A model generated the notes under the pieces. That model worked only from the letters and a program-made list of their open reading frames with translations, did no database searches and was not told the DNA's origin. Below are positions 2 through 35,221 of a stretch of DNA of 64,000 nt, piece after piece. Source of the stretch: a virus; IMG/VR virus record IMGVR_UViG_3300010430_000013, positions 25,734-89,733 of that record; one strand, given 5' to 3'. A program made the position numbers and the translations under genes. How positions within the stretch are numbered: the first letter of the stretch is position 1; every line of letters starts with the position of its first letter.

Positions 2-76
2 TCTGGATGGTTTTTTGATTTAGAAACATCCAGTGGCACATTTCATGCTGGAATTGGGCAGGGAGTAGTCCATAAT
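2..76 (+). mobile_element. C-terminal end of an intein in gmd
   Basis: SGWFFDLETSSGTFHAGIGQGVVHN|S matches intein blocks F/G with terminal His-Asn and Ser+1, in place of the expected Gmd LFNHE before SPRRG. Confidence 0.85.
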
Positions 77-577
77 TCCCCTCGTCGCGGTGAGAACTTT
101 GTGACTAGGAAAATTACAAAAGCCCTATGTAATGTAGCCAAAGGTGATCTAGCTTATCTCCACATTGGCAACATGGACGCCAAAAGAGACTGGGGACATG
201 CTCGTGACTATGTAAGAGGAATGTATCTGATGCTCCAGCAGGATTCCCCAGAAGACTACGTTCTAGCCACAGGAGAACAGCACAGCGTCAGAGAATTCAT
301 CGAACTAGCCGCTTTAGAGTTAGGAATTGAGATTGGCTGGACAGGCAAAGGACTTAGTGAAGAGGGGTATGTTAAAAGACTGTTCGACACAAAATATGGA
401 GATCCACCACTTGTAGAAGACGAAGTCATTGTGGTTGTTAATGAAGAGTTCTATCGACCGACCGAAGTCGATACCTTGTTGGGCGACCCCAGCAAAGCCA
501 AGAAGGAACTCTCTTGGTATCCTCAGGTTTCATTTAAATCCCTCGTCTCTGAAATGGTGGAAGCCGACTATGACTAA
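2..577 (+). CDS. gmd: GDP-mannose 4,6-dehydratase, C-terminal part (5' truncated), interrupted by an intein
   Basis: Frame open from base 2; SPRRGENFVTRKIT, GNMDAKRDWGHARDYVRGMYLMLQ, DYVLATG, RPTEVDTLLGDPSKAKKEL are diagnostic Gmd motifs. Confidence 0.95.
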   Translation, partial: SGWFFDLETSSGTFHAGIGQGVVHNSPRRGENFVTRKITKALCNVAKGDLAYLHIGNMDAKRDWGHARDYVRGMYLMLQQDSPEDYVLATGEQHSVREFIELAALELGIEIGWTGKGLSEEGYVKRLFDTKYGDPPLVEDEVIVVVNEEFYRPTEVDTLLGDPSKAKKELSWYPQVSFKSLVSEMVEADYD

Positions 578-755
578 CGATAGTCAAGGATATGGAGCAG
601 GAACATGTTTTAGATCTGGCCATGCGTTTGTTAAGATTTATGATAAGTCATACGGGGAAGCTGTGGGTGGACATGAGCCTACTTTTTTTAAAAGTATTGG
701 ATTTGGAACTAAAAACATCCTCATGATAAAAAAGCTTCTACTAAATAAAAAGTGA
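570..755 (+). CDS. hypothetical protein
   Basis: ATG at 570 overlaps the end of gmd; 61 aa. Confidence 0.45.
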   Translation: MTNDSQGYGAGTCFRSGHAFVKIYDKSYGEAVGGHEPTFFKSIGFGTKNILMIKKLLLNKK

Positions 756-791
756 ACTCATTTTACAATCTAGCCAACTGAGCTAAATACC

Positions 792-1010
792 ATGACCAGA
801 CCATATCGGGCGGTGATTGTCCTTGAGACTGACGACGGCTGGTGTGCAGCGGTCGCGGAATATGAGTCAGAGGAACTGTATTACGAGTGTTGCAGCGGTG
901 GTGAGTCATTCCCTGTGCCAGAAAGCGAAATCATGACAACCTGCAGACACCGTCACAGGTCGCCTGCGTCGTGTAGGCGATGTTGCTTACGCATGCAGAA
1001 GACGCTCTAG
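792..1010 (+). CDS. cassette 1 hypothetical protein, Cys/His-rich C-terminus
   Basis: ATG 6 nt after repeat 1; TAG stop lies in repeat 2. Confidence 0.75.
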   Translation: MTRPYRAVIVLETDDGWCAAVAEYESEELYYECCSGGESFPVPESEIMTTCRHRHRSPASCRRCCLRMQKTL

Positions 1011-1051
1011 CCAACTGAGATAGGAAACCAAACGGAAGGAAACGAAACCAA

Positions 1052-1753
1052 ATGTTTAACCCAGAAACCGGAAAACGAATCCACCTCACTCACGGAGCAG
1101 GCAACGGCGTGGATAAAGCCTGCTTAATTACCGCTTCCAACATGCTGATTGGTCGCGGACAAGACGGCGACAACAATAGTTGCGTCTGCCCTGTCCTGCG
1201 GAAATTCATTATCACTACCAACGACTCGATGCCCGAAGATTTGCTCAGCGAACTCTACGGTCCACTCGCATGGGAAATCCTTGGCACCGCAACCGGTGAC
1301 CCTGCAACCGAACAGCAGCGTGCGTATCGCTTTGTGGACTGGGCGGTGCGGGAGATTACACCAATAGCATTAAGGGCATCAGGGATGGGTGACCACGCAT
1401 CAAAGCTGAAGGCGCTGTCGCCAGTGGTAGACCAGCAGACCGCCCGTGCCGTCGCCCGTGCCGCCAGTGCCGCCCGTGTCGCCCGTGCCGCCGCCCGTGC
1501 CGCCGATGCCGCCTATGCCGCCGCCGCCGTCGATGCCGCCGTCGATGCCGCCGTCGATGCCTCCGCTTATGCCGCCGCCCGTGCCGCCGCCCGTGCCGCC
1601 GCCAGTGCCGCCCGTGCCGCCCGTGCCGCCGATGCCGAATTGATCTGGCGAAAGTGCCCTGACATTATCCGCGAGGTAGCTGCGATTGGGGACAGGCGAC
1701 CTGTTGAGACTGTAATTGACCACTGCGATTTAGCAGCCGCTCTAGCCGACTGA
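1052..1753 (+). CDS. cassette 2 Ala-rich repeat phage protein
   Basis: RBS AAGGA; AAxAA low-complexity tract; TGA stop lies in repeat 3. Confidence 0.85.
   Translation: MFNPETGKRIHLTHGAGNGVDKACLITASNMLIGRGQDGDNNSCVCPVLRKFIITTNDSMPEDLLSELYGPLAWEILGTATGDPATEQQRAYRFVDWAVREITPIALRASGMGDHASKLKALSPVVDQQTARAVARAASAARVARAAARAADAAYAAAAVDAAVDAAVDASAYAAARAAARAAASAARAARAADAELIWRKCPDIIREVAAIGDRRPVETVIDHCDLAAALAD
1441..1637 (+). repeat. degenerate GCC-GCC-NNT tandem repeat (coding, AAR/AAD/AAY/AAS units)
   Basis: gccgcccgt / gccgccgat / gccgcctat / gccgccagt units are directly visible. Confidence 0.9.
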
Positions 1754-1783
1754 GCTAGTTAACTAACCAGAAGGGAAATTGAA

Positions 1784-2041
1784 ATGGAACATCACGAAAA
1801 AGCAAACGAGCAGGAAGAACGTATCAAAGCACTCGAACAGATTGCGAGGCGATACCAATTCTTGCTTTCGCAATTCCAAATGCACTCGCCCGACATGGCT
1901 GGAGCGACTCGCTACCGGTTCCGCAATGGTGGCTGGCCTATGACACATTTTTGCGGCCCGACCATCGAGGCGGCGATTGATAATGCGATGTCGGAAGTAG
2001 AGCGGGAAAAAAAAGACACTCTAGCCAACGGAGCTAATTAA
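1784..2041 (+). CDS. cassette 3 hypothetical protein
   Basis: Fills the space between repeats 3 and 4; reads through repeat 4 because its TGA is changed to GGA. Confidence 0.75.
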   Translation: MEHHEKANEQEERIKALEQIARRYQFLLSQFQMHSPDMAGATRYRFRNGGWPMTHFCGPTIEAAIDNAMSEVEREKKDTLANGAN

Positions 2042-2042
2042 C

Positions 2043-2141
2043 ATGAGAATGATTGCAATTGAACTTATTTGTGCCGGATTGCTGATGGCTCTTGGGGTAG
2101 TCAAGTTAATCGAAATCATACACGACGCTCTAGCCAACTGA
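2043..2141 (+). CDS. cassette 4 small membrane peptide (32 aa; not in the ORF track)
   Basis: MRMIAIELICAGLLMALGVVKLIEIIHDALAN*; ATG 6 nt after repeat 4, TGA in repeat 5. Confidence 0.65.
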   Translation: MRMIAIELICAGLLMALGVVKLIEIIHDALAN

Positions 2142-2167
2142 GCTACACAACCAAGAGGTAATAAAAA

Positions 2168-2371
2168 ATGAACAAAATGCAATTGCAAAAGATTTCGAGC
2201 GACGTGTTCACGGTCAGCGTTGGCTGCGTGTCTATGGCGGTAGAGCTAGACAGCGATGACGAGAGGCATCGTCTCGTACTGCGAGACATGGTCGACGCAT
2301 ATAACGATGCCATTGAGTTTCGGACAGCCAAGGAACGGCATGCCGAATCACAATACAACAATACGCTATAG
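2168..2371 (+). CDS. cassette 5 hypothetical protein
   Basis: RBS GAGGT; TAG stop lies in repeat 6. Confidence 0.75.
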   Translation: MNKMQLQKISSDVFTVSVGCVSMAVELDSDDERHRLVLRDMVDAYNDAIEFRTAKERHAESQYNNTL

Positions 2372-2389
2372 CCAACTGAGCTGATAACT

Positions 2390-2596
2390 ATGAGTCGAGA
2401 AGAATATAGAAACTTGGAATACGCACTGGGCGGGCGCAAGGCAGCGGATAGGCATATAGCTTCGCGGTTACGTGAACTGGCGGATATTGTCGAATCAGAC
2501 GAGTGGCCAGACGTGATTAGCTGGCAAGACGATAGAGAGTTTGAGCCAATGATGACGACGGTAAAGCTGACGTTGTCACTGCCGCTGGGCGGGTAG
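2390..2596 (+). CDS. cassette 6 hypothetical protein
   Basis: ATG 6 nt after repeat 6; TAG stop lies in repeat 7. Confidence 0.75.
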   Translation: MSREEYRNLEYALGGRKAADRHIASRLRELADIVESDEWPDVISWQDDREFEPMMTTVKLTLSLPLGG

Positions 2597-2646
2597 CCAA
2601 CTGAGCTAGAAAAAGCTCTAGACAACTAATAAAGGAAACCAAACTT

Positions 2647-3018
2647 ATGTCCAATAACAAACAGCCAAATAGACACGTCTGGTTCTTCCGCCTTGCAGGT
2701 GGAGGAAACCAATGCACTGAATACAGAACTAGTGAAAAAGAAGCCGCGATGCGTCTCTTGCACGACGAATATGGAGAAACCGCAGTCGATGCTGTTCGGC
2801 GGGAGTTGACGTTTTTTGAATACGCTGGACTGCTCCGGTGTAATTACGAGGGGTACGGGCGGCAGGTGTATCAAGCGTTGCAGGACTTCTTTTTTCGGTG
2901 CGACCCGCGAGGACATAAGGGCTTTGACGACGAGACGTTAATCCGGTCGCAGTCCGACATCCAAGCAGGCAGGGTGCTGTCCACGGAGGAATACCTTGAG
3001 GACTTAAGGAAAGACTAA
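2647..3018 (+). CDS. cassette 7 hypothetical protein
   Basis: RBS AAGGA; stop immediately before the last repeat. Confidence 0.75.
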   Translation: MSNNKQPNRHVWFFRLAGGGNQCTEYRTSEKEAAMRLLHDEYGETAVDAVRRELTFFEYAGLLRCNYEGYGRQVYQALQDFFFRCDPRGHKGFDDETLIRSQSDIQAGRVLSTEEYLEDLRKD

Positions 3019-3051
3019 CGTTCTAGCCAAATGAGATAATAAGCATTAAAA

Positions 3052-3089
3052 TGCAAGCGCCGAAGTCGCCCGCCGCTTGTAGTTTTTTT
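3052..3089 (+). terminator. intrinsic terminator closing the cassette array
   Basis: TGCAAGCG...CGCTTGTA stem followed by GTTTTTTT. Confidence 0.7.
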
Positions 3090-3181
3090 ATTGTTGTGCG
3101 ACCAGGAGATAATTTTATAGGAATTTTTTCTGCGCTCATTCTTTTGTTGTTGACTGAAGTTAAACTCTAAGGACCATAAAT

Positions 3182-3427
3182 ATGTTAAATATTCTTGCTG
3201 CTTTCGGTGTGCTGCTTCTAGCGAGTTTTCCATTGATTGTTGGATACAAGATCATTCGATGGGTTCTCACAATTGAAAGAAGAATTGATGTAGTGGCTAA
3301 CGCTATTAACGAAGTGGCTCGCACGCAGATGGCCTCAAGCCCTGCGCTGGCTATTTCATCTGAAACGTCTGAAACTCAAATGGGCTTTGTCCAAGGAACC
3401 TACCATGAAGAAGATGGGAATTCATAA
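3182..3427 (+). CDS. membrane protein
   Basis: RBS AAGGA; N-terminal hydrophobic helix. Confidence 0.7.
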   Translation: MLNILAAFGVLLLASFPLIVGYKIIRWVLTIERRIDVVANAINEVARTQMASSPALAISSETSETQMGFVQGTYHEEDGNS

Positions 3428-3989
3428 TTTCCTGCTATTGGTCTATTTATTTCTGTTTCTCTTTGCGGTGTTTGTGCCGCTCGGCATTTGGAAACTTTTG
3501 GAGATTTTATTCTGATGCCCAGCTATGAACTTGGTAGAGCCACCATTGATTATATTTCTGGTAAAAATTCTGATCCATGCGATAATTGCGGTACCACTCA
3601 TGCAACAATGTATTCTGTTGGACTAGCGAAATCGCCTGGAGAAGAAAAGAACATTTCCTGGACCCTTTGTGTTACTTGTAGATCCCACCTAGAAGGCGTA
3701 TTTAATGAGCACACAGAGGACTGGGATTCAATCTTCTATTAAGTTGAGGTGAAATGATAGACTTAATAAACGCAATAGCTATTGTTGTATTGGTATTCTA
3801 TTGCTTTTATTGGCTACTTTGGATTAGTAAGGTTGAAAAATACATTGACTCTAAGGAAAAAGAGAATGGACAATAAACTAGTCATCACTACAAAAGCGTA
3901 CAGCGAATTAACCTATATTTTGAGGGAGCTGGTAGATGAAATACATGAATCACGCAGATGCTATCTTGTAGATGCTTTAAAAAAACTAG

Positions 3990-5354: not shown

Positions 5355-5557
5355 GAGTATATGAACCCGGAACAACCGTATTTATTGGAGATGGTACCAT
5401 TCAAGGAGAGCTTTTGAAGGTGTGTATATGCAATGAAAATTACGTTAAATATCAGGTCGTTTGGTGGAATGGCGGGGAAAGAAAAGTAAAGTGGTTAGAT
5501 TATAGGGAAATTCATACTAACTATAACAGCGAAACCATTAGAATAGACTACGAATAA
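5351..5557 (+). CDS. hypothetical protein
   Basis: Coupled start; compact beta-rich sequence. Confidence 0.65.
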   Translation: MRVYEPGTTVFIGDGTIQGELLKVCICNENYVKYQVVWWNGGERKVKWLDYREIHTNYNSETIRIDYE

Positions 5558-5610
5558 TGGATTTTGGTGTATGTAAGGTATACACCCGACCCACCCGAAA
5601 CAATGGAAAA

Positions 5611-6258
5611 ATGATCATTCTAAGTGACCTACATTTAGGCTCTAATCGTAACTATCTATATAACTTAAACAGGTGGCTAAAAAAGGAGAATAAAGACCAA
5701 GAAGTAGTTCTGCTTGGGGACACGTTCGACGATTATAAGAAAAGGTTTCTAACCTATGACGACTTGGTGTTTCTGGAGAGAGTTAGAGAATTCAATTCAG
5801 TTCACATATTTCCTGGAAATCACGACGCTCAAGTCTTTCGGAATCATTCTCACCACTTTGCGTCTTATTGTGGGAAAATGCACTGCAATCTAGATAACCT
5901 TCCAGTTCATCTAACCCCCAACATCTTGGCCTTGCATGGCGACCATTGGGACAGAACAAACCCAATCCTTATGAGATGCGCAGATGTAGTGTACGACTTA
6001 ATGCTGGCTAATAACAGAACCGGTTACGGCTGGATCAAACAGCTAGCTAAAAGACGCTGCATAAATTCTTTTCTAAAAAATGCAAAAATTTTGTTTGAGG
6101 AAAAGCCTGAAGTAGACTATATATTAGTAGGCCATCTTCATCAGCAACAGTCGTGGGAGCTACTTCCCGGTAAGACACTAGTGTGCTCTGGATGCTTTGT
6201 TGAGGAGGAAACTTTCCTAACTGTCCAGGGCAAAACCATAACCATGAGAAGGTTTTAA
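5611..6258 (+). CDS. calcineurin-like metallophosphoesterase (LpxH-like)
   Basis: SDLHLG, GDTFD, GNHD, HGD, GHLH motifs. Confidence 0.9.
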   Translation: MIILSDLHLGSNRNYLYNLNRWLKKENKDQEVVLLGDTFDDYKKRFLTYDDLVFLERVREFNSVHIFPGNHDAQVFRNHSHHFASYCGKMHCNLDNLPVHLTPNILALHGDHWDRTNPILMRCADVVYDLMLANNRTGYGWIKQLAKRRCINSFLKNAKILFEEKPEVDYILVGHLHQQQSWELLPGKTLVCSGCFVEEETFLTVQGKTITMRRF

Positions 6259-10329: not shown

Positions 10330-10785
10330 CTCTGATTTAATCCCAATACTGGCTATGCTGCTGTATTCTACACAGGGCTTCATATTACTACATAAAAGGC
10401 AGTACGGATTTGCCTTAATGTGGTTTTCTTATGCTGTAGCAAACATCGGCATCTTAATTGCACAAAGAAAATAAAATGAATTGGAAATATTATCCATTAG
10501 AGTCGCCCAAGCGGGCTGGAAAATATTTGGTCGTACTTGAGTGCATGGGCGAACGTTGGGTTTCTATTAAACCTTGGGGTCAAACGCAAGTTCATAGCGG
10601 AAGCTCATTTGGTCACAAACAAGAAAAGTGCTGGTTTCTGGGCATGGAATTTAAAGATACGCAAGTTGTAAAGTGGTGTGAGATACCACCTTGGGAATAG
10701 TCAAAAAAAACTTGATGACGTAACTCGTTGATTGGTGTAGAATACTATTAGCCAATTAATTTAACCCAACAATGGACGTATCCCA

Positions 10786-13782
10786 ATGGAAAACAATCTT
10801 CCCACCCCTTACCAAGAGTTCATTCATCTTTCACGTTACGCTCGATGGCTTCCAGAAGAAAAAAGACGAGAGACTTGGGAAGAAACGGTTGATAGATTAG
10901 TTAACTTCTTTGAAGAGCACCTTAAGGAAAACTTTGACTTTGAGTTAGGCAAGGCAAAAAACCGCCTCCGCAAAGGAATCTTGAATCTTCAGGTTGTTCC
11001 AAGCATGAGGGCGCTTTGGGCTGCTGGTCCCGCTGCATCACGCGATAATGTGGCATGTTACAACTGTTCAGCTTTGCCTATCGACAAGCCCGCATCTTTT
11101 GATGAATTATTTTATATTTTAATGAATGGCTGTGGCGTCGGATTCTCAGTTGAACGACAGTTTATCAACAAGCTTCCTGAGGTGTCTGATAGCTTCCATG
11201 AGTCCGATACAACCATCGTGGTGAGTGATAGCACCATCGGCTGGTGCAAGGCGTTAAAAGAGCTTATAGGCATGCTCTACGTGGGGCAGGTTCCAAGATG
11301 GGATCTATCGAAGATTCGCCCTGCCGGAACTCCACTTAAAACCAAAGGCGGTCGAGCTTCTGGTGGCGAAATTCTCGGTCAACTGTTTGACTTTGTTGTA
11401 GTTACCTTTAAGGGTGCATCGGGCCGAAAGCTAAACTCTCTTGAGTGTCACGATATCTGCTGCAAAATTGCTGAAATCGTAACCGTCGGAGGTTGTCGCC
11501 GTTCAGCTTTGCTGAGTTTGTCCAATTTGTCAGATTTACGCATGAGAGAAGCAAAAGTTGGGCGTTGGTGGGAAGAAAGCGCTCAACGTGCAATGGCAAA
11601 CAACAGTGTGGCTTACACAGAAAAGCCAGATATGGGCATCTTTATGGAAGAATGGAAGTCCCTCTATGACAGTAAATCTGGCGAGAGAGGTATCTTTAAT
11701 CGGGAGTCTTGCAAAAAAATTATCGAAAAGATTGGTCGCAGGGATACTGATTTTGAGTTTTTAACTAATCCGTGTGTCACATCTGATACATGGATTGATA
11801 CTTCCGAAGGTCCGATTCAAGCATTCAATCTGATCAACAAGCCATTTCTGGCAACAGTAAATGGAAAAAATTATGAATGTAAAACAGGTTTCTTTAAAAC
11901 GGGACATAAAGATGTTTACGAAATCGAAACCTCTCGCGGATACTCAATTAAATGCACCTCTGACCACAAAATCTTAACAATTAAAGAAGGTCAAGAGCTT
12001 TGGGTTGAGGCGCAACATCTAGACGAGAGTTCAAATATCTGTATTAATCAGCTTGTTCATCAGGATGATTACGATTTGGATTTGAATGAATTTCATCAAG
12101 GTTGGCTAATGGGGGAAGTAGCTGGAGACGGCGGTCACAATCCTGAAAAATATCCTTCGTATGTCAGATTCTGGGGACATAATCGACATCAAATGTCGTC
12201 TATGGCTCACGATTTCGTTAAAGATTTGCCTTATGATTCGCACAGGCCAACAGCGCTTGCTGATGATCCCACTGACAACGGAACTTATAGTCAATCGGCC
12301 AGCAGAGCGCTTGACGAGCTACTGGAGGGCATGCTTGAGCCAGAAACCAAGAATATCCTGCCAGCCCTAGAGGGGGCGTCAGACTCTACTGTGAGAGGCT
12401 TCTTGAGGGGCATTTTTGATGCTGATGGAACCGTGCTTTTTAATAAAGAGAAGGGGCGCTCAGTAAGGCTTGGTCAGAACAATTTAGACCGACTTAAGTC
12501 AGTTCAGAGAATGCTGCATCGTTTTGGTATTGAGTCTTCGGTTTATCAAAATCGAAAACCTGAAGGTTATTACGAAATGCCTGACGGAAAAGGAGGTAAT
12601 AAAGAATACTTCTGTAAGGCTATGCATGAACTGGCTATCTCTCGTGAAAACATTTGCAAGTTTGCAGAATTAATTAATTTTTATGATGCTGACAAAAAAA
12701 CAAAACTAACTGAGTGCATTGATTCGTTAAGTCGAACTCCGTATAAAGACAAAATGACCACGAATTTCGTGTCTCGTCGTCATATCGGTCAGCAAGACGT
12801 TTATGATTGCACAGTGGATGAAGTGCATCGGTTTGGAGCGAATGGAATTATTATTCATAATTGTAGCGAAATATTACTCAGACCTCGTGGATTCTGTAAC
12901 CTCTCAGAAGTAATCCTTAGGGAGGATGATACAGAAGAAACAATCCTTGAAAAGATTGAACTAGCAACAATTCTTGGAACCATCCAAAGCACCTTTACTA
13001 ATTTTCGCTATCTTAGCAAAAACTGGAAGAAGAACGCAGACGAAGAGCGACTGCTTGGTGTTTCGATGACTGGAATTATGGACTGTCCTCTTACGAATGA
13101 TTCCGTAGAAGGTCTTGAAGGAAGGTTAGAGAGATTCAAAGAAAGGGCCATTGAAGTAAATAAAAAATGGGCAAAGTCTATTGGTATTAATCAGTCTGCT
13201 GCTATTACCTGCGTTAAACCGTCAGGCAATACTTCACAGCTTTGCGACACTGCAAGTGGAATTCATACTCGTCACTCTCCTTACTACATCAGAACGGTTA
13301 GGTCTGACAAAAAAGACCCGCTAACCAAACTAATGATTGATAAGGGGTTTCCATATGAGGACGAAATTAACAATCCTCAAAATATTGCAGTGTTTAGTTT
13401 TCCAATTAAAGCTCCTGAGCAATCGTTTTTTAGAAATGATAAGACCGCTCTTGAGCAGCTAGAGCTTTGGAAGAAGTATCAGTTGCATTACTGTGAGCAT
13501 AAGCCATCTATTACGGTTTCGGTAAAAGAAGACGAATGGCTTGAGGTTGGTGCCTGGGTTTATAAAAACTTTGATTTGATGAGCGGCGTTTCTTTCTTGC
13601 CGTTCAGTGATCATGTCTATAAGCAAGCGCCTTATCAGGATTGCACTAAAGAACAATACGAAGAGCTTTTGGCAAAGATGCCGAAAACTATTGACTGGTC
13701 TGAACTATCTGCTTACGAGTCCTCGGATATGACTACCGGAGCACGAGAATTAGCATGTACTGCTGGAGGCTGCGAAATTTGA
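10786..13782 (+). CDS. nrdJ: class II (B12-dependent) ribonucleotide reductase with intein
   Basis: SRYARW, RETWEETVDR, PSMRAL, YNCS, GGCRRSA, NPC/CSEI, FCNLSE, TCVKPSG, C-terminal LACTAGGCEI; no nrdB/nrdF small subunit adjacent. Confidence 0.92.
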   Translation: MENNLPTPYQEFIHLSRYARWLPEEKRRETWEETVDRLVNFFEEHLKENFDFELGKAKNRLRKGILNLQVVPSMRALWAAGPAASRDNVACYNCSALPIDKPASFDELFYILMNGCGVGFSVERQFINKLPEVSDSFHESDTTIVVSDSTIGWCKALKELIGMLYVGQVPRWDLSKIRPAGTPLKTKGGRASGGEILGQLFDFVVVTFKGASGRKLNSLECHDICCKIAEIVTVGGCRRSALLSLSNLSDLRMREAKVGRWWEESAQRAMANNSVAYTEKPDMGIFMEEWKSLYDSKSGERGIFNRESCKKIIEKIGRRDTDFEFLTNPCVTSDTWIDTSEGPIQAFNLINKPFLATVNGKNYECKTGFFKTGHKDVYEIETSRGYSIKCTSDHKILTIKEGQELWVEAQHLDESSNICINQLVHQDDYDLDLNEFHQGWLMGEVAGDGGHNPEKYPSYVRFWGHNRHQMSSMAHDFVKDLPYDSHRPTALADDPTDNGTYSQSASRALDELLEGMLEPETKNILPALEGASDSTVRGFLRGIFDADGTVLFNKEKGRSVRLGQNNLDRLKSVQRMLHRFGIESSVYQNRKPEGYYEMPDGKGGNKEYFCKAMHELAISRENICKFAELINFYDADKKTKLTECIDSLSRTPYKDKMTTNFVSRRHIGQQDVYDCTVDEVHRFGANGIIIHNCSEILLRPRGFCNLSEVILREDDTEETILEKIELATILGTIQSTFTNFRYLSKNWKKNADEERLLGVSMTGIMDCPLTNDSVEGLEGRLERFKERAIEVNKKWAKSIGINQSAAITCVKPSGNTSQLCDTASGIHTRHSPYYIRTVRSDKKDPLTKLMIDKGFPYEDEINNPQNIAVFSFPIKAPEQSFFRNDKTALEQLELWKKYQLHYCEHKPSITVSVKEDEWLEVGAWVYKNFDLMSGVSFLPFSDHVYKQAPYQDCTKEQYEELLAKMPKTIDWSELSAYESSDMTTGARELACTAGGCEI
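11773..12861 (+). mobile_element. intein with LAGLIDADG homing endonuclease (363 aa) at the active-site Cys of NrdJ
   Basis: NP|CVTSDT...TSDHK...GEVAGDG...LRGIFDADG...VYDCTV...IIHN|CSE. Confidence 0.95.
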
Positions 13783-21286: not shown

Positions 21287-22255
21287 ATGAAAATTTCGGA
21301 ACTAGTAAAAAAGATTACTTTCTCTTTTGAAGAGTTTGAGGCTATGCAAGGCGAAAAGCCAATTGTAAGTCTTAGTCCTACATTTAATTCAATTTGCGGA
21401 GGCATTAAAGGCGGCTCGTTTGTTTTGATGGGTGGACCACCTAAATGCGGTAAAACAATTACCTGTCTAGACTTTGCTGCACGCGCCCAGCAAGCTGGAT
21501 ATACAGTGCTTTATCTTAATTCAGAAGGAAGACTCGCCGTAAGAGATATCAAGGGCTGCAAAAAACTTGACTATTCGGTAGAAAAGTTTAAATTGATTAC
21601 TTCTACCACTGAGAACAAAGTTTCTGCGGAGCAATATCTAGGCTCTGTACTTCATTACATGGAAACCGAAGAACGCTTGTTTGTTATTGCGGACTCTCTT
21701 AGCCATATGGAAGCAGAGAAACAGCTTAACGATGCAACTTGCGACCTTACAAGAGATGCCTCTCCAAGAATCATGTCTCAATTCTGCAAGAAGCTGGCTC
21801 CATACATCAGCTCAAGTGACCACATTTTTCTAGGCGTTGTCCATTTAATTGCCAATACTTCTGGTTATGGAAAATCCGTAGTAGAAGGAGGAGGCAATAA
21901 AATTCAATATGCTGCTGATATTAAGCTTCGTCTAAAAAATTACGAACCTATGACGAATGCTGATACCTATAGGGACAGGGAATACGGTCGTAAAATTAAC
22001 TGGATTTGCGAAACGTCTAACATGGGCTTCCCGAAGATGGAAGGAACGTCTTATGTTATCCTTGGAGAGGGCATTGACGACATTGCTGAGCTTTTGCCCA
22101 TTGCACTGGAAACTGGCGTAATGAGCAAGGGGGGAGCGTGGTATAATTATGGAGAGCAAAAGTTTCAAGGAGAGAAAAAGACTATCGAAGCACTGCGCGA
22201 CAATCCAGAAATGTACAAAGAAATTAAAGATGAAGTAGAGGCAAGACTAGCATAA
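21287..22255 (+). CDS. recA: RecA/UvsX-like recombinase
   Basis: GPPKCGKT, VIADSL, GGNKIQYAA, GAWYNYGEQKFQG. Confidence 0.9.
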   Translation: MKISELVKKITFSFEEFEAMQGEKPIVSLSPTFNSICGGIKGGSFVLMGGPPKCGKTITCLDFAARAQQAGYTVLYLNSEGRLAVRDIKGCKKLDYSVEKFKLITSTTENKVSAEQYLGSVLHYMETEERLFVIADSLSHMEAEKQLNDATCDLTRDASPRIMSQFCKKLAPYISSSDHIFLGVVHLIANTSGYGKSVVEGGGNKIQYAADIKLRLKNYEPMTNADTYRDREYGRKINWICETSNMGFPKMEGTSYVILGEGIDDIAELLPIALETGVMSKGGAWYNYGEQKFQGEKKTIEALRDNPEMYKEIKDEVEARLA

Positions 22256-28718: not shown

Positions 28719-29099
28719 ATGGCTAACTCTTACAATCACTCGGTTCTGGTCGGCAACGTTGTTCGTGATACGGAAATTCGCGATGCCGGAAAGTCTAAGG
28801 TAGCAGACAATGCTATCGCCATTACGGAGACTTTCGGGGAAAAGGAAGTAACAACATTTGTTGACATTACTCTTTGGGGACGAAATGCTGAAACGTTTCA
28901 GAAGTTCTGCCCTAAAGGTCGCACGGTCTTGATTGAAGGCTCTCTTCGTCAAGACAAGTGGACAGACAACGACGGCAACAAACGTTCTAAAATGTTTGTT
29001 AATGTCGACCGATTTGTTCTTTTAGGCTCAAAGCCTGGCGGTGGTCAGCAGCAGGAAACTGTTGCGGCAGGAGCAGGCTCGGATGATCTCCCCTTCTAA
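28719..29099 (+). CDS. ssb: single-stranded DNA-binding protein
   Basis: LVGNVVRD, KGRTVLIEGSL, DDLPF tail. Confidence 0.95.
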   Translation: MANSYNHSVLVGNVVRDTEIRDAGKSKVADNAIAITETFGEKEVTTFVDITLWGRNAETFQKFCPKGRTVLIEGSLRQDKWTDNDGNKRSKMFVNVDRFVLLGSKPGGGQQQETVAAGAGSDDLPF

Positions 29100-29130
29100 G
29101 CCTCCCTCTCGCTTAGAAGGCACTTCGATG

Positions 29131-29164
29131 CGCCTGCGTGCTCGTAGCACGCAGGCGTTTTTTA
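29131..29164 (+). terminator. intrinsic terminator after ssb
   Basis: 12-bp stem CGCCTGCGTGCT/AGCACGCAGGCG followed by a T-run. Confidence 0.85.
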
Positions 29165-29181
29165 TTCTTTTGGAGTTGTTT

Positions 29182-30687
29182 ATGTATCACCCCGGCGTAA
29201 TGACTCACGGCTCTGTTTTGCAAAGTGCAGTACACCCGGAGCATATTCAGGATTTTATCAATAATTCTGACTACTCCATGCTGCCAATCCTTGACTGGAA
29301 TCTTAGTCAGGCTTACCCGTATATAGACTCGACCGAACAACCTGTAATCGGTCTATTGAAAAACTTTACACAAGATAATGTTGAGATAACCTGCGCCCTC
29401 TATGCCCTCAATCGAAAGGGGTTTGGCGAGCTGCTCAGAATATCCAACGGGCTCCCAATTGCGGATAATTGCAAGAATATTGCAGCACTCTCGCCGGAAG
29501 CTTTAAATATCCCGGATCTTGAAGATATTGACCTGCATATCAAGACATTCAATCCTATAGCCCCAGCGCTCGTTCTAAGGGACTCTCAGCTTGATCACCA
29601 TAAGGTACTCATTAACAAAGCAAAAGGCGAATACGACGCGCCTGTGCCCCTAGAAAACGATGTTACCGATTGGTCTTGTTTAGCGCCGCTTTATGAGGCC
29701 GTAGAGAAATACAGTTTGGACAACAATCCTAGGCTTCCTCACTTTCCAACGGGAGACAAAACTGAAGACGAATTTCTCCGCGAACTCTGCGTTAAATCCT
29801 TAAAAGATAAAAATTTAGAGAGTGAAATATACCTTAGCCGTTTAAATTATGAGCTACAGACGTTCGAAAACGCCGGAATGAGTGGTTATTTCCTAATTAT
29901 GTGGGATATTTGCCGCTTTATTCAGGAGAGTGGCTCTATGTTGGGGGCTGGTCGTGGGTCTGCTGCGGGTTGTTTAGCGAGTTATCTGCTGGGCGTTACT
30001 AAAGTTGACCCGATTAAGTACGACCTAATCTTCGAAAGATTCTATAATCCTGACCGAAAGGGCGTACCCGATATCGATTGCGACATTGTGCCGGAATTTA
30101 GACCTAAAGTTATTGATTATTTAAGAGACAAGTATGGTTCCGAGAAAGTTGCACAGCTTTGCACTTACACTACTTTTAAAGGTCGAGGAGCCCTCAAAGA
30201 AACCCTAAAGCAACACGGAATGTCGCACGCAGAGGCAAATAAGGTAACTGAATGCCTTCATGAAGAATCTAAAATTGATCCACAGCTCAAAGACCAGTAT
30301 AATTCATTAGGGACTAAAAGTGTGCTTCTGTACACTTTAATGCATAGTCGAAGACTCGATTTCTGGTGTAAATTTAATAGGAAGACAAGTAAATACACTG
30401 GTAAGTGGGCGGATGCCTTCAAACTGGCAGTTGAGATGGACAGAACTAATATTGCAATTGGCAAACACGCTTCGGCTTTTATTCTGTCAGATAGAAATTT
30501 GCTAGATCAGTGTCCTGTTATACCAGATCCGGCCAACGGGCCTCACCCAGTTTGTGGCTGGGAAATGAATGCGGCAGAAAGATCAGGTTTGGTTAAGTTG
30601 GATTTGTTGGGACTGGACTGCTTGTCTAAATACCAAAGAAGCAGAGAAGTCATATCTAGTAAATCAATCTACTTGGAGGCCATATAA
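29182..30687 (+). CDS. dnaE: DNA polymerase III alpha, N-terminal half (degenerate PHP + catalytic palm)
   Basis: GYFLIMWD, GRGSAAGCL, FERFYNPDR, PDIDCD, GKHASA, LVKLDLLGL. Confidence 0.93.
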   Translation: MYHPGVMTHGSVLQSAVHPEHIQDFINNSDYSMLPILDWNLSQAYPYIDSTEQPVIGLLKNFTQDNVEITCALYALNRKGFGELLRISNGLPIADNCKNIAALSPEALNIPDLEDIDLHIKTFNPIAPALVLRDSQLDHHKVLINKAKGEYDAPVPLENDVTDWSCLAPLYEAVEKYSLDNNPRLPHFPTGDKTEDEFLRELCVKSLKDKNLESEIYLSRLNYELQTFENAGMSGYFLIMWDICRFIQESGSMLGAGRGSAAGCLASYLLGVTKVDPIKYDLIFERFYNPDRKGVPDIDCDIVPEFRPKVIDYLRDKYGSEKVAQLCTYTTFKGRGALKETLKQHGMSHAEANKVTECLHEESKIDPQLKDQYNSLGTKSVLLYTLMHSRRLDFWCKFNRKTSKYTGKWADAFKLAVEMDRTNIAIGKHASAFILSDRNLLDQCPVIPDPANGPHPVCGWEMNAAERSGLVKLDLLGLDCLSKYQRSREVISSKSIYLEAI

Positions 30688-30990: not shown

Positions 30991-31194
30991 ATGGCTAGAT
31001 TTGACTGGGTTCCTTTTGGTGAGCAATTCCGATTTGAGGGGGATATGTTCAAAAAGATAGATTTCGATACCGCTGAGAATATGTTCACAGGCGACTTTCA
31101 GCGTTTTGACTCGATGCAGCAAGTAGAGTACGAAGACTACGAAGAAGAAGCGATGGACGTATTCGCGCTTGATGACGATAACTTGGACTGGTAA
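30991..31194 (+). CDS. acidic hypothetical protein
   Basis: RBS AAGGA; very acidic C-terminus. Confidence 0.65.
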   Translation: MARFDWVPFGEQFRFEGDMFKKIDFDTAENMFTGDFQRFDSMQQVEYEDYEEEAMDVFALDDDNLDW

Positions 31195-31198
31195 TCTT

Positions 31199-31990
31199 AT
31201 GAAGAAAGTATGCGGCAAGTGCAAGACAGAGAAGCTCACGGAGGAGTTTTACAAAAATAAGTCAACGAAAGACGGCTATGCTGGTTGTTGCAAGTCTTGC
31301 CACACGTCATACTTAGACGCATACAAACAAAGAAATATAAAGATACCAGAAGAAAAAACTTGTTATAAATGTAAAAAGACAAAATCCAAAGACTGCTTTA
31401 GTAAAATGAAGCAAGCTAAGGACGGCTTACAGCAATCATGCAAAGAGTGTTGTAAAAAATACAAAGAGTCTCTAAAGAATAGAGAAGATAAAGCTGAATC
31501 AAAAGCATGCCCAAGTTGTAAGGTTCTTTTAAGTTCTTCCGAATTTAATTCTTTTTGTTATAGCGCTGACGGACTTTCTGTCTATTGTAAAGAGTGTACA
31601 AAAAAGAAAAAAACAGAATATCTTCCAGTAAGACGAAAAAGGAAAAAATTTAGATATGATAATGACGTTCAATACAAAATAAAAGACTCCTTAAGAAAAA
31701 GAATTCGCGTTGCCCTTAAAGGTAAAGCAAAATCAAAAGCCACAATAGCTCTTTTGGGGTGCTCCGTAGATTTTTTAAAAACATATCTAGAAAATAAATT
31801 TGAATCTGGAATGACGTGGGAGAATTACGGAATTGATGGTTGGCACATAGATCATATAATTCCTTGTTCTGCATTCGACTTAACTGATCCAGAGCAACAA
31901 GGGCTTTGTTTTCATTACACGAACCTTCAGCCTTTATGGGCTGAGGACAACATTAAAAAAAGCAACTCACTGAATTGGAGAAAAAGATGA
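31199..31990 (+). CDS. HNH-type homing endonuclease with three Zn-ribbon repeats
   Basis: 3x KxCxxC...DG...CKxC; WHIDHIIP...HYTNLQPLW..DNIKKSN. Confidence 0.85.
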   Translation: MKKVCGKCKTEKLTEEFYKNKSTKDGYAGCCKSCHTSYLDAYKQRNIKIPEEKTCYKCKKTKSKDCFSKMKQAKDGLQQSCKECCKKYKESLKNREDKAESKACPSCKVLLSSSEFNSFCYSADGLSVYCKECTKKKKTEYLPVRRKRKKFRYDNDVQYKIKDSLRKRIRVALKGKAKSKATIALLGCSVDFLKTYLENKFESGMTWENYGIDGWHIDHIIPCSAFDLTDPEQQGLCFHYTNLQPLWAEDNIKKSNSLNWRKR

Positions 31991-32688
31991 TTTTAGTTAC
32001 GGATTTGGAGACAATAGACTTAAATAAAAATAAGGTTTCTCATGAGACTGCAATTCCCGTACAACTTGCGGCCATCCCTCTGGATGAGAATTCTCTGGAG
32101 ATTATCGACGACCCTCTGTGTATGTGGATTAATCCTGGCGAAGAAATACTTAATTCACCGTCCTTTTATCAAGATTACTCAAATGTTTTGGCCTTTCATG
32201 AAAAAGCACAAGGTAAACCAAAAGAGGAACTTGTCGAACTCTGGCGCTCAGGATTGGCCACGAGAGACGCGATGAAAGAATTTAAGGATTACGTTAAGTC
32301 TTATACCAAGGGCTCAAAAAAAGCATATTTTGGAGGTATGAACGTCAGAAATTTCGACATACCTATTCTAGAGCGTTTAATCGACAAAGGCTGGCCCTTT
32401 GCTAAAGTTAAGACTTGGGATATTAGAGACGTTGCCCAAATGTGGTTCGAATATTCTCGCAACCCACCTAAGTTGAACGGTAGAGTCAGCTATAGCTTCG
32501 ACTCTTTGCGTCAATACTTTGATATGAGCACAGAGAATGCTCACGACGCCCTTGTTGACGTTAGGCAAGAAGCAGACCTGCTCAGAAGATTTTTACGACT
32601 TCAGAAGAACCTAATGACTTACGGTTATCAACACAGAGACCAAAAGGCATTTGCTTGGGCTAAAGTTCTTCATGGAGTTAAGTCTTGA
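31987..32688 (+). CDS. DEDDh 3'-5' exonuclease (DnaQ/epsilon-like)
   Basis: TDLET, NVRNFDIP, AHDALVD. Confidence 0.88.
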   Translation: MILVTDLETIDLNKNKVSHETAIPVQLAAIPLDENSLEIIDDPLCMWINPGEEILNSPSFYQDYSNVLAFHEKAQGKPKEELVELWRSGLATRDAMKEFKDYVKSYTKGSKKAYFGGMNVRNFDIPILERLIDKGWPFAKVKTWDIRDVAQMWFEYSRNPPKLNGRVSYSFDSLRQYFDMSTENAHDALVDVRQEADLLRRFLRLQKNLMTYGYQHRDQKAFAWAKVLHGVKS

Positions 32689-33281
32689 GCTTAGGCGATA
32701 AGATTAAAGCGCTAAGAAATAAAGGATATTCTTACAACGAAATAGCAAAAGAGCTTGGTTGCTCTAAAGGCACTGTTTCGTATCATTGTGGAGAGGGTCA
32801 AAAGGATAAGGCAGAAGCCAGAAGAAAAAAACGAAGGAAAGAAAAGCCTGTCGACAGAAAGGTTGAAAATTTTCATGCTGAGAGAACATCATCCTTTGAA
32901 CAATCTATTGTTAGAAATAATAACGAAAGAATTTCAGGGAAGATAGCGCTTTTTCATAGTTGTGGGAGTAGAATGAAAACTAAATATACACCAAGAACCT
33001 TCAGCGTGAGCGAAGCAAAAGAACTACTAGAAGAACGAGGAGTTTGTTATTTGACTGGAGATCCAATCGACCCAGAAGACAGTCAATCTTATCATTTTGA
33101 TCACATTAAGCCAAGGTCCGCAGGGGGAGAAAATACAATCGATAATTTAGGAATTTCTTCACCAGAGGCTAATTATGCCAAGGGAAGCATGGAATTTGAG
33201 GACTTCATAAAAATGTGTCATAAAATAGTGAAGAGATATCCTGATCCAGAAGACCCAAGACCAAAACACGAAAGGGGCTGA
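32685..33281 (+). CDS. HTH + HNH endonuclease
   Basis: GYSYNEIAKELGCSKGTVSYH; CYLTG, DHIKPRSAGGENTIDNL...ANYAKG. Confidence 0.85.
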   Translation: MSLGDKIKALRNKGYSYNEIAKELGCSKGTVSYHCGEGQKDKAEARRKKRRKEKPVDRKVENFHAERTSSFEQSIVRNNNERISGKIALFHSCGSRMKTKYTPRTFSVSEAKELLEERGVCYLTGDPIDPEDSQSYHFDHIKPRSAGGENTIDNLGISSPEANYAKGSMEFEDFIKMCHKIVKRYPDPEDPRPKHERG

Positions 33282-33634: not shown

Positions 33635-35221
33635 ATGATTTTTGATTGTGGGTGCGAATTTCACCAAACAGAAGACGGCGGCTGGACTTGGGACGACGAG
33701 AATATTAATTTTCAATGTCCAAAAGTTTGGAGGTTAATTTGTTCTGGCAATACGTCTGGCGTCTTTCAGCTGGACGCTATGCTGGGTCAACATTGGTCCA
33801 GGCAGGTCAAGCCAGAAAACATTAATGAATGGTCTGATCTTATTGCTATTATCCGTCCTGGTATGCTGGAAGCTATCGTGGACGGAAAGAGCCAGACTCA
33901 GCGCTATGTTGACAGAAAACACGGCAAAGAGAGTGTCGCGTTCGACCATCCAAAGCTAGAGGAGGTTCTAGGACCAACTCAAGCTACCATGCCGTTTCAA
34001 GAGCAAGCCATGAGAATCGCCACAGACTTGGCGGGGTTCACAATGGCCGAGTCGGATACTTACATTCGCAAGGGTATCGGCAAGAAGATTCCTGAGGTGA
34101 TTGCCAAAGCCAAGGAAATGTTCATCGAGGGATGCCTCAAGAATAATATCTCCAAAGAATTAGCCGAAAGAATCTTTACGTCTATCGAGGCTGCACAGCG
34201 ATATTCGTTCAATAGGTCACACAGTCTTAGTTACGCTCTGGATGGTTATATTTATTCAGCATATATCAAAGCGCATTTTCCGCTGGAGTTTCATTGCACA
34301 GAATTAGACTTTGCTAAGGGCAAGCAGCCTAAGACTGACCTTGAGGCCGTCTGTGACATCATCGAGGATGCCCTAAAGATGGACATCAAGGTTATGAAAC
34401 CCGACCTTAGATATTTAAATGAAAGATTTTCTATAGTTGACGGCACCATCCTTTACGGCTTAACTAAGATAAAGCATCTCGGTCCCGATAAAATTCGAGC
34501 ACTTCCAGAGCTGAAAGACGCTACTTACATAGAGCTTATCGCTGCCTTAGACAAAATAAACAAAACTTCCGCAGAAAACTTAATCAAAAGCGGGTCTTGT
34601 GATTGGATCAAAGCGCCTCGTTCTAAAATGTTGGCAGACTATGCGGCTTACTCCAAGCTAAATGTGCAGCAAAAAGAAGTTTGTGTAGAAGAATCTGACG
34701 TTCTTAAGGGAATTCAAAAAATTATAGAAATTGGGCCGTCCACCAAGAGCAAGCTGTGCTATAATAAAGTGTCGCTAAAAAAATTAAAGGAACTTGAGAA
34801 TCTCCTCGTGAATCCAATCCGACAGCCAAAAGACACCCCTCAAAAGATTATTGACTGGGAAAAGGAAACACTTGGGCGCTCATTTACTTTTGATGAGGCT
34901 TTGACTCGTTATTGGGATGGGAATTACAAAGAGTTGATTGATGTTAAGCATCATTCTGTCCCCCTAAAAGATCAATTCCTGTTGAGCGCGGTTCTCAGGG
35001 ACTTTAAAGAAATTTACACCAAGAAAAAACAAGAACCTATGGCTCGAATAACTGTTTACAGTTTAGATTGGGTCAGTGATGCGGTTATATTTCCTAGGGC
35101 TTGGGAATTGTGCAAGCATGCGATTGAATCTAATGTCGGCCAGCCGCTTTTATTCAAAGCCAGAATGAATTTCTACAACGAGCAATGGGGCCTAGTAATC
35201 GAGGAGATAGAAGATGTCTAG
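33635..35221 (+). CDS. dnaE: DNA polymerase III alpha, C-terminal half (fingers, HhH, OB)
   Basis: GNTSGVFQL, IRPG, FQEQAM, YSFNRSHS, AYIKAHFPLEF, YGLTKIKHLG, AVIFP. Confidence 0.93.
   Translation: MIFDCGCEFHQTEDGGWTWDDENINFQCPKVWRLICSGNTSGVFQLDAMLGQHWSRQVKPENINEWSDLIAIIRPGMLEAIVDGKSQTQRYVDRKHGKESVAFDHPKLEEVLGPTQATMPFQEQAMRIATDLAGFTMAESDTYIRKGIGKKIPEVIAKAKEMFIEGCLKNNISKELAERIFTSIEAAQRYSFNRSHSLSYALDGYIYSAYIKAHFPLEFHCTELDFAKGKQPKTDLEAVCDIIEDALKMDIKVMKPDLRYLNERFSIVDGTILYGLTKIKHLGPDKIRALPELKDATYIELIAALDKINKTSAENLIKSGSCDWIKAPRSKMLADYAAYSKLNVQQKEVCVEESDVLKGIQKIIEIGPSTKSKLCYNKVSLKKLKELENLLVNPIRQPKDTPQKIIDWEKETLGRSFTFDEALTRYWDGNYKELIDVKHHSVPLKDQFLLSAVLRDFKEIYTKKKQEPMARITVYSLDWVSDAVIFPRAWELCKHAIESNVGQPLLFKARMNFYNEQWGLVIEEIEDV

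Follow-up and report, generated by a model that had tools for sequence, protein, structure and literature searches.

A repeat antisense to the tRNA D-arm joins the small genes of an operon in an uncultured marine-sediment phage

The ways in which phages gain and trade small accessory genes, host-takeover and anti-defence genes included, are only partly understood. The closest described systems are the promoter-early stem-loop (PeSL) cassettes of T4-type phages (Arbiol et al. 2010, PMC2839356; Comeau et al. 2014, PMC4122927), the stoperators of Cluster A mycobacteriophages, which are genome-wide sites bound by the immunity repressor (PMC9283540, PMC6550527), and the elements that integrate into tRNA genes and leave partial tRNA genes as direct repeats (PMC9897764 and references therein). 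Here we report an array of seven small genes joined by a conserved linker of 15–22 nt in an uncultured phage from marine sediment. The window analysed is a stretch of 64,000 nt, bases 25734–89733 of one IMG/VR virus record of 89,733 bp (IMGVR_UViG_3300010430_000013); positions refer to the window unless given as genome positions. We tentatively favour the reading that the repeat is a universal stop/restart linker that doubles as short homology for cassette exchange, functionally like the PeSLs of T4.

The 16-mer CTAGCCAACTGAGCTA was found by pattern search at eight positions of the plus strand (770, 1007, 1742, 2021, 2130, 2368, 2593 and 3023) with 0–2 mismatches, and a degenerate copy at 2618, which could represent a unit without a gene or the scar of a junction, agreed chiefly in its left half, GCTCTAGACAACT. 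Both the positions and the spacings between the starts (237, 735, 279, 109, 238, 225, 25 and 405 bp) bear out an earlier note on this DNA, made from the sequence alone, which had described an integron-like array of phage gene cassettes. None of 100 shuffles reached 10 matches (mean 0.51). The wider search that the note had proposed, made across the 89,733-bp record, located all copies within 770–3038, a single 2.3-kb operon; elsewhere nothing matched, even with four mismatches or as sub-words of 8–9 nt; a genome-wide promoter was rejected on this ground. In the 13 copies pooled from this phage and a second one described below, TAGCC is invariant, and a GACGCT-like hexamer is present in 9–11, extending the conserved part to 22 nt in most. 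The core is near-palindromic (TAGC-7 nt-GCTA), with inverted arms of 4–5 nt. There is one more repeat than there are cassettes, and the first and last copies have no open reading frame (ORF) on one side.

Every unit except that of 25 bp holds one ORF, and the seven ORFs are co-oriented and closed by a single terminator, as the note had stated (Table 1). Its spot counts of a higher G + C (GC) content in the cassettes were likewise upheld, both by GC fractions per 100-nt bin (0.31 at 701–800, 0.56 at 801–900 and 0.31 at 3101–3200) and by the GC content of third codon positions (GC3), which is 0.46–0.62 in the seven cassette ORFs versus 0.33–0.44 in the flanking genes. The GC excess begins and ends at the outer repeats. 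The cassette genes are compositionally foreign and may have been transferred from GC-richer phages. The hairpin behind the upstream gene would shield the array from upstream transcription, and the array's own promoter is presumed to lie in the AT-rich leader that follows. No consensus sigma-70 promoter passed the scan of this leader, and none of the internal repeat copies was reported by the scan as a promoter-like site; its only match (3024–3052; 9/12 matches, below the shuffle expectation) overlaps the last repeat.

The record has a GC content of 42% and a completeness of 59% according to CheckV, and the phage looks virulent. No tRNA gene was detected by ARAGORN in the window or in the whole record, the INPHARED phage records gave no blastn match to the phage, and a scan with a gene neighbouring the array gave no relatives. 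An assembly chimera was ruled out by unitigs of an independent public marine-sediment run that span both array borders (300–881 and 1598–3500) at an even depth of about 8, and by independent assemblies; an identical ORF7 protein occurs on contigs from three independent sources, the longest of 121 kb. The same sediment run contains two haplotypes of ORF1 (876–988), with five differences per ~100 nt and depths of 4.1 and 3.5. Their left flank shows no differences over 582 nt, which localises the microdiversity inside the cassette.

On the plus strand each of the three reading frames meets a stop codon in the repeat (TAG, TGA and TAA/TAG). In the two phages, six ORFs end at the TGA and therefore have a repeat-encoded tail of the ALAN type, and in one more this TGA is altered. 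The TAG terminates four ORFs, and two others already stop at a codon of their own shortly ahead of the repeat. The ORF with the altered TGA is ORF3, which reads on to a TAA because the TGA of repeat 4 is mutated to GGA. From the repeat end to the next start codon there are 6–38 nt in the window's array. In four copies the distance is 6 nt, and in these the GAG/GGAG of the linker is probably a ribosome-binding site.

ORF2 belongs to a family with 116 homologues, of which the closest (P0001–P0006; 64–73% identity) all end in LA[DE]ALAN, the repeat read in frame; more distant relatives have a native LAxAL-like end in DNA without the repeat. Homologues of the ORF7 core end in the repeat tail or in other tails: one relative (P0118, 80% identical) ends directly in HDALAN, and the end is GNDG in the other members of its cluster, which share over 90% identity with it. 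Cassette homologues, whose flanks the note had proposed to check, thus occur both with and without the repeat. No locus of the ORF7 family was found in IMG/VR. ORF3 belongs to a large family of small proteins from viruses, which lack repeat tails, and no homologues of ORF1 were found. Pfam and NCBIfam gave no assignment for any cassette protein. The predicted structure of ORF2 is all-helical (pLDDT 81) and had no PDB match by Foldseek. Among homologues, the (Ala-Ala-x)n tract of the ORF2 family is hypervariable, both in how long it is and in which residue stands at x (window 1430–1640; L117 10380–10560; L122 8380–8600). Even two contigs of 99.6% identity differ here by an in-frame indel of 39 nt, and the other reading frames are open across the tract.

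A second array with the same linker was found in the viral contigs L117, L121 and L122, which have a GC content of 54.5% and are 99.6–99.99% identical to each other (CheckV completeness of L117, 43%). It consists of five repeat copies around four cassettes. The L117 lineage shares only three proteins with the window's phage, and of its cassettes the ORF2 homologue alone has a relative in the window's array; the same repeat thus surrounds one shared family and three unrelated genes, in agreement with the proposal that it marks exchangeable modules. The homology of the ORF2 region (window 995–1757 versus L117 9946–10682; 73% nucleotide identity) is bounded by the flanking repeats, and the repeat cores are 90% identical across both genomes, compared with 73% for the shared gene. 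The leader types that follow the core recur before different genes, and in one pair of copies about 18 nt are shared past the core and run into two unrelated ORFs. The inner borders of the cassettes vary in both phages, with a left edge at the hexamer, at the TAG or 5–20 nt upstream, and a right leader of 6–65 nt. An L117-type phage is also present in the sediment run (loose contig end at 2145). Among the matches listed by four DNA scans of IMG/VR, there were only tRNA genes and the L117 lineage.

The match to tRNA genes concerns a defined part of the molecule. The repeat together with its hexamer is the exact antisense of tRNA nucleotides 8–29, mostly of tRNA-Gly: the reverse complement of the 22-mer reads U8-A9, D-stem GCUC, D-loop AGUUGGCUA, D-stem GAGC, G26, U27 and C28. 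More than 120 bacterial genomes, from many phyla, contain the exact 22-mer. Of 125 matches, 116 are antisense inside tRNA genes, 115 starting at position 8 and one at position 9; 60 are in tRNA-Gly(GCC), 24 in tRNA-Gly(UCC) and the rest in Val, Ala, Met, His and Thr tRNAs. The exact 16-mer sits at tRNA positions 8–23 in the IMG/VR loci inspected, and in 98 of the 114 loci listed all matches are in opposite-strand tRNA genes called by ARAGORN. Because the matches of the 22-mer fall antisense in tRNA genes at position 8, the repeat is, judged by its sequence, certainly tRNA-derived or tRNA-matched. This identity, the stops in three frames and the probable ribosome-binding site in four copies go beyond the earlier note.

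The 16-mer matches in tRNA genes would also suit an array that is a decayed tRNA gene cluster of the minus strand, with the repeats as its last, functionless relics, and phage tRNA clusters often hold small ORFs. We consider this origin highly improbable. Only nucleotides 8–29 are represented, and the anticodon arm, T-arm and acceptor stem are absent from every repeat copy. ARAGORN and Rfam, the latter even at E-values up to 10, found no tRNA at the repeats, which rules out tRNA genes or tRNA-like RNAs there, and a weak Rfam match to YrlA (E 5.3) was dismissed because it reflects the D-arm alone. Four copies have no room for the rest of a tRNA because the next start codon is only 6 nt away, and the orientation is opposite to that of all neighbouring genes. 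Moreover, relics would not stay 90% identical while the shared gene is at 73%.

According to the stop/restart reading, the array would be one operon, transcribed from the AT-rich leader to the terminator at 3048–3091, in which small accessory genes are strung together by a constant intercistronic linker. Its stop codons would terminate a gene joined in either of the two frames seen in use, and GAG/GGAG would serve as ribosome-binding site for the next gene in four copies; with stops and a probable ribosome-binding site supplied within an operon, a gene would thus do without a stop codon, promoter or terminator of its own. Because the linker flanks every gene and is common to unrelated co-occurring phages, it would offer short homology at which RecA/UvsX-like recombination swaps, adds or deletes whole genes between co-infecting phages, and repeated exchange would keep the linker uniform. 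The linker would have originated as a piece of a tRNA gene (nucleotides 8–29, opposite strand), and cassettes would form by illegitimate joining followed by homology-driven exchange. A RecA/UvsX-like protein encoded in the window (PF00154, E 6e-11, above the cut-off) is a candidate trans factor for such exchange at the array. A single linker would thus be a compact way to express joined genes in an existing operon and a common splice point for unrelated phages of the same habitat, and is possibly useful as a natural three-frame stop-and-restart element.

Several points weigh against this reading. With 15–22 bases, the linker just reaches, or falls short of, the length below which RecA-type recombination is usually no longer efficient. 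No ORF uses the stop of the third frame, and the promoter and restart roles are presumed ones. Array DNA was seen in two lineages only, with no gain or loss caught between close relatives; the near-identical relatives of L117 (99.6–99.99%) keep the same cassette order and are uninformative on turnover. Excised circles or junctions, a further check proposed in the note, did not materialise: the assembled contigs of one sediment DNA run yielded no trustworthy junction of excision, deletion or circle formation. Two joints, 1000->1782 (side of 21 nt, 90% likeness, depth 3.4) and 1526->2124, were dismissed as unreliable or as derived from the co-occurring L117-type phage. Finally, the 22-mer consensus still perfectly matches living tRNAs, which is not obviously explained by drift and exchange and could be a pointer to sequence-specific recognition. 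The perfect match leaves room for a site-specific enzyme, a trans-acting reader or a role of the tRNA itself. Of the note's proposal that promoterless foreign genes are captured or shuffled, the foreign single-gene array and the limits of exchangeable modules stand, and no evidence of an active capture machine was found in the two phage records, both incomplete.

A site-specific enzyme would imply a cassette system with an integron-like logic, in which the core TAGC-7 nt-GCTA would be the recognition site of a recombinase or nuclease by which cassettes of one gene each are inserted or excised; the gene of this enzyme would lie in the ~40% of the phage that the record lacks, on a helper element or in the host. 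The inverted arms of the core, its near-invariance over 15 nt across unrelated phages whose shared gene has diverged to 73%, the n + 1 repeats and the exact coincidence of array ends, GC shift and repeats speak for such a system, and the enzyme could have escaped notice because both phage records are incomplete. We nevertheless regard it as distinctly unlikely. No match to the tyrosine or serine recombinase families (PF00589, PF00239) was found in the 89.7-kb record or in that of L117, with 14 of 14 controls recovered for PF00589, which extends to both records the remark in the note that no recombinase is visible in the window; RecT and ERF were also without a match in either record. The arms of the core are far shorter than known tyrosine-recombinase sites. 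There are no attC-like palindromes or folded structures, and the sole notable inverted repeat is the terminator (3048–3085). The variable inner borders and the shared sequence that can extend past the core into the next ORF differ from what a fixed crossover would leave, and for these reasons illegitimate and homologous recombination, as proposed for the stop/restart linker, fits better.

A trans-acting reader would be expected if the repeat were purely a cis-regulatory signal (an endoribonuclease site, a translational operator or a stoperator-like site), its constancy being maintained by the factor that reads it and the mosaic genes being incidental. Neither a conserved nor a stable RNA fold was found at the repeats: the stem has only 4 bp and lacks a U-run, and the folding of the junction segments does not exceed that of shuffled sequence (RNA and DNA z-scores of −1.7 to +1.7). 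Strong conservation of sequence without a conserved fold would suit a site that is accessible in single-stranded form, and the repeat stands at every stop/start junction in one orientation. Intergenic repeats before small genes are also seen in other phages with ORF2 homologues, each lineage having its own, and the constant cassette order among the L117 relatives also agrees with a regulatory site. A purely regulatory role is still unlikely: the motif is limited to one 2.3-kb operon whose outer copies lack an ORF on one side, two otherwise unrelated phages would need the same reader, the two arrays cease to be homologous precisely at the repeats, nearly identical ORF7 genes exist both repeat-tailed and repeat-free, and the cassettes are of foreign composition. 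Regulation and recombination are also compatible, as PeSLs do both.

One 88-kb contig with a GC content of 60% (L123) carries, 2 kb upstream of its ORF2 homologue, eight copies of the 17-nt word CCGTGGTGAGCGCAGGA and close variants (5496–6086), the last seven 65–66 nt apart. The lineage-specific repeats of phages with ORF2 homologues lie just before the start codons of neighbouring small genes (L128:6482–7521; L120:9950–10890). Repeated intergenic linkers may be common in such regions.

A role of the tRNA itself, which would hold the linker to the antisense of tRNA nucleotides 8–29 through mRNA–tRNA pairing or through tRNA-dependent gene capture, appears very improbable. In the pairing form, the polycistronic mRNA may bind tRNA, or the 5' halves produced by host anticodon nucleases, and act as a tRNA-damage sensor or sponge for the accessory-gene operon. 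Either form, if true, would be a principle of phage gene capture or gene control without described precedent. As an account of the whole array, in which the linker would pair with nucleotides 8–29 of a host tRNA or with 5' fragments to sense or sponge them, or in which cassettes would be captured by reverse transcription primed with a tRNA fragment, it is scarcely probable. It draws on the perfect antisense match with its start at tRNA position 8, which persists though the arrays are old, on two variant copies with D-loop variants at position 17, a position that varies among real tRNAs, and on a tRNA-sense sequence at the 5' end of the strand that the cDNA of each gene would form. Several copies are, however, altered at universally conserved tRNA positions, nucleotides 1–7 are never included though a primer copy predicts them, and the D-arm of a folded tRNA is poorly accessible.

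For the capture form, the enzyme would possibly be a retron-type reverse transcriptase (RT) of 234 aa, encoded by the window's phage about 15 kb before the window and 16 kb from the array (genome 10399–11103, with the retron-type RT at 10426–10941; L150:1474–2178, plus strand). It was assigned to RT_III-A/II-A by PADLOC (E 2e-36) and to the retron St85 family by NCBIfam (E 8e-35, below the cut-off). Its neighbour is a divergent trypsin-like protease of 223 aa (genome 9436–10107; L150:511–1182, minus strand), which weakly resembles the protease moiety of RT-protease retrons of type XI. A phage-carried retron is unusual. Retron RTs are self-primed on their own RNA, and no repeat-like sequence was found near the gene. 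As gene and array have no sequence in common and the L117 record has no RT, a link between them was rejected. The search for a recombinase or RT elsewhere in the genome, as suggested in the note, has thus turned up an RT unconnected to the array by sequence, and neither a tyrosine nor a serine recombinase in the record.

Outside the array, the two otherwise unrelated phages have another accessory module in common, a domain of ~111 aa (61–64% identity) beside Gly-rich repetitive coding sequence (L117:1331–2760; genome 3431–3769). In both, a gene for a calcineurin-like metallophosphatase is located 0.3–2.5 kb from the array (window 5557–6258; L117:11311–11979, minus strand). Pfam supports the L117 gene (E 1e-6) and gave nothing else among the L117 array neighbours; the motifs of the window ORF were recognised by eye, and BLASTP showed no similarity between the two. 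The DNA polymerase of the window's phage is split into two ORFs about 3 kb apart (29041–30687 and 33635–35221, corresponding to positions 313–615 and 619–1054 of PHROG 405). The intervening ORFs (31169–31990 and 32685–33281) carry HNH endonuclease motifs, and the arrangement looks like a split by mobile insertion. Together with the RecA/UvsX-like gene and the RT, these HNH ORFs make up the candidate trans-acting genes of the phage. Tandem partial-tRNA units of another kind were observed in metagenome-assembled genomes of Chitinophagales and Bacteroidales (L342:7300–7750; L271:40–130; L255:7890–7980; L312:4670–4770). These units recur every ~70–170 nt and comprise the acceptor strand, D-arm and anticodon arm (GAA) without a T-arm; ARAGORN calls none of them, and at least in L342 and L312 they adjoin a complete tRNA-like sequence.

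Table 1. Features of the array and its surroundings (window positions).
Feature	Position	Strand	Remarks
GDP-mannose dehydratase-like gene	2–577		Upstream of array; from ORF list
Terminator-like hairpin and T-run	663–689	+	Stem 663–682; after GDP-mannose dehydratase-like gene
AT-rich leader	690–769	+	31% GC, ~80 nt
Repeat copy 1	770–785	+	Exact core, no hexamer, no ORF before; ORF1 starts 6 nt on
ORF1	792–1010	+	72 aa, Cys-rich orphan, GC3 0.60; stop is TAG inside repeat 2
Repeat copy 2	1001–1022	+	Hexamer and core, 1 mismatch
ORF2	1052–1753	+	233 aa, all-helical, variable Ala-rich (AAx)n tract; stop is TGA in repeat 3
Repeat copy 3	1736–1757	+	
ORF3	1784–2041	+	85 aa; TGA of repeat mutated to GGA, ends at TAA just past repeat
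Repeat copy 4	2015–2036	+	T-to-G change abolishes TGA and creates GGAG 9 nt before ORF4 start
ORF4	2043–2141	+	32 aa, hydrophobic peptide; repeat-encoded DALAN end
Repeat copy 5	2124–2145	+	Exact 22-mer, identical to one copy in second phage
ORF5	2168–2371	+	67 aa; stop is TAG of repeat 6
Repeat copy 6	2362–2383	+	Core and next ~18 nt common with L117 copy preceding unrelated gene
ORF6	2390–2596	+	68 aa; stop is TAG of repeat 7
Repeat copy 7	2593–2608	+	Core only
Degenerate copy	2612–2633	+	Only left half retained
ORF7	2647–3018	+	123 aa; conserved core of ~90 aa and 28-aa extension with own TAA
Repeat copy 8 (last)	3017–3038	+	2 core mismatches, no ORF after
Intrinsic terminator	3048–3091	+	15-nt arms, then U-run; closes operon
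RecA/UvsX-like recombinase gene	21287–22255	+	PF00154

Compared with described systems, the array is neither CRISPR nor an attC array, as the note had already held. CRISPR repeats are 23–50 nt long and separated by uniform non-coding spacers, whereas the spacings here are 25–735 nt and are filled by ORFs with homologues. Integrons resemble the array in their promoterless, co-oriented single-gene cassettes behind a single upstream expression region (here presumed), in having one repeat between cassettes and one more in front, in the foreign composition and mostly unassigned function of the cassettes, and in ORFs some of which end in the repeat. It is nevertheless not an integron, because no tyrosine or serine recombinase and no attC-like structure were found, so that the likeness claimed in the note fails in the defining parts of an integron; the repeat is a constant 15–22 nt, in contrast to the imperfect palindrome of 57–141 nt in attC, the cassette edges are not fixed, and the array is in a virulent-looking phage.

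As with elements integrated into tRNA genes, direct repeats identical to part of a tRNA flank foreign DNA, and tandem insertions of such elements give arrays. The known att cores reportedly lie in the anticodon loop, the T-loop or the 3' end of the tRNA, beside a complete tRNA gene and an integrase. Here, the fragment is that of the D-arm, neither a complete tRNA nor an integrase was found, and the inserts are single genes of 0.1–0.7 kb. With stoperators, the linkers have in common that they are short asymmetric sites in one orientation to transcription, located in tiny intergenic gaps and often overlapping stop codons; unlike stoperators, they are confined to 2.3 kb, with none elsewhere in 89.7 kb, and mark exchangeable modules.

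The PeSL cassettes differ in that each gene is its own transcription unit, because a PeSL combines a sigma-70-like promoter with a terminator stem-loop. The linker has neither, as far as was found, and lies inside one operon, where it would act on translation through its stops and probable ribosome-binding site; it is common to unrelated phages and appears to be tRNA-derived. PeSL cassettes also form mini-circles by exchange between neighbouring repeats, whereas the present array is known from contigs alone. Both systems, however, occupy a plastic region of a lytic-type phage genome. In each, the accessory genes are small and mostly orphans with a short conserved repeat on their flanks, a RecA-family recombinase is among the phage's own products, and the repeat has a role in expression and marks the point of exchange between otherwise unrelated sequences. 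The repeats bound gene replacements between phages here as well, both between the window and L117 and among the tails of ORF7 relatives. If genes are indeed exchanged at the linker, a fragment of a universal gene, that of a tRNA, would have been put to use as a portable connector of genes, and the PeSL principle would extend beyond T4-type phages.

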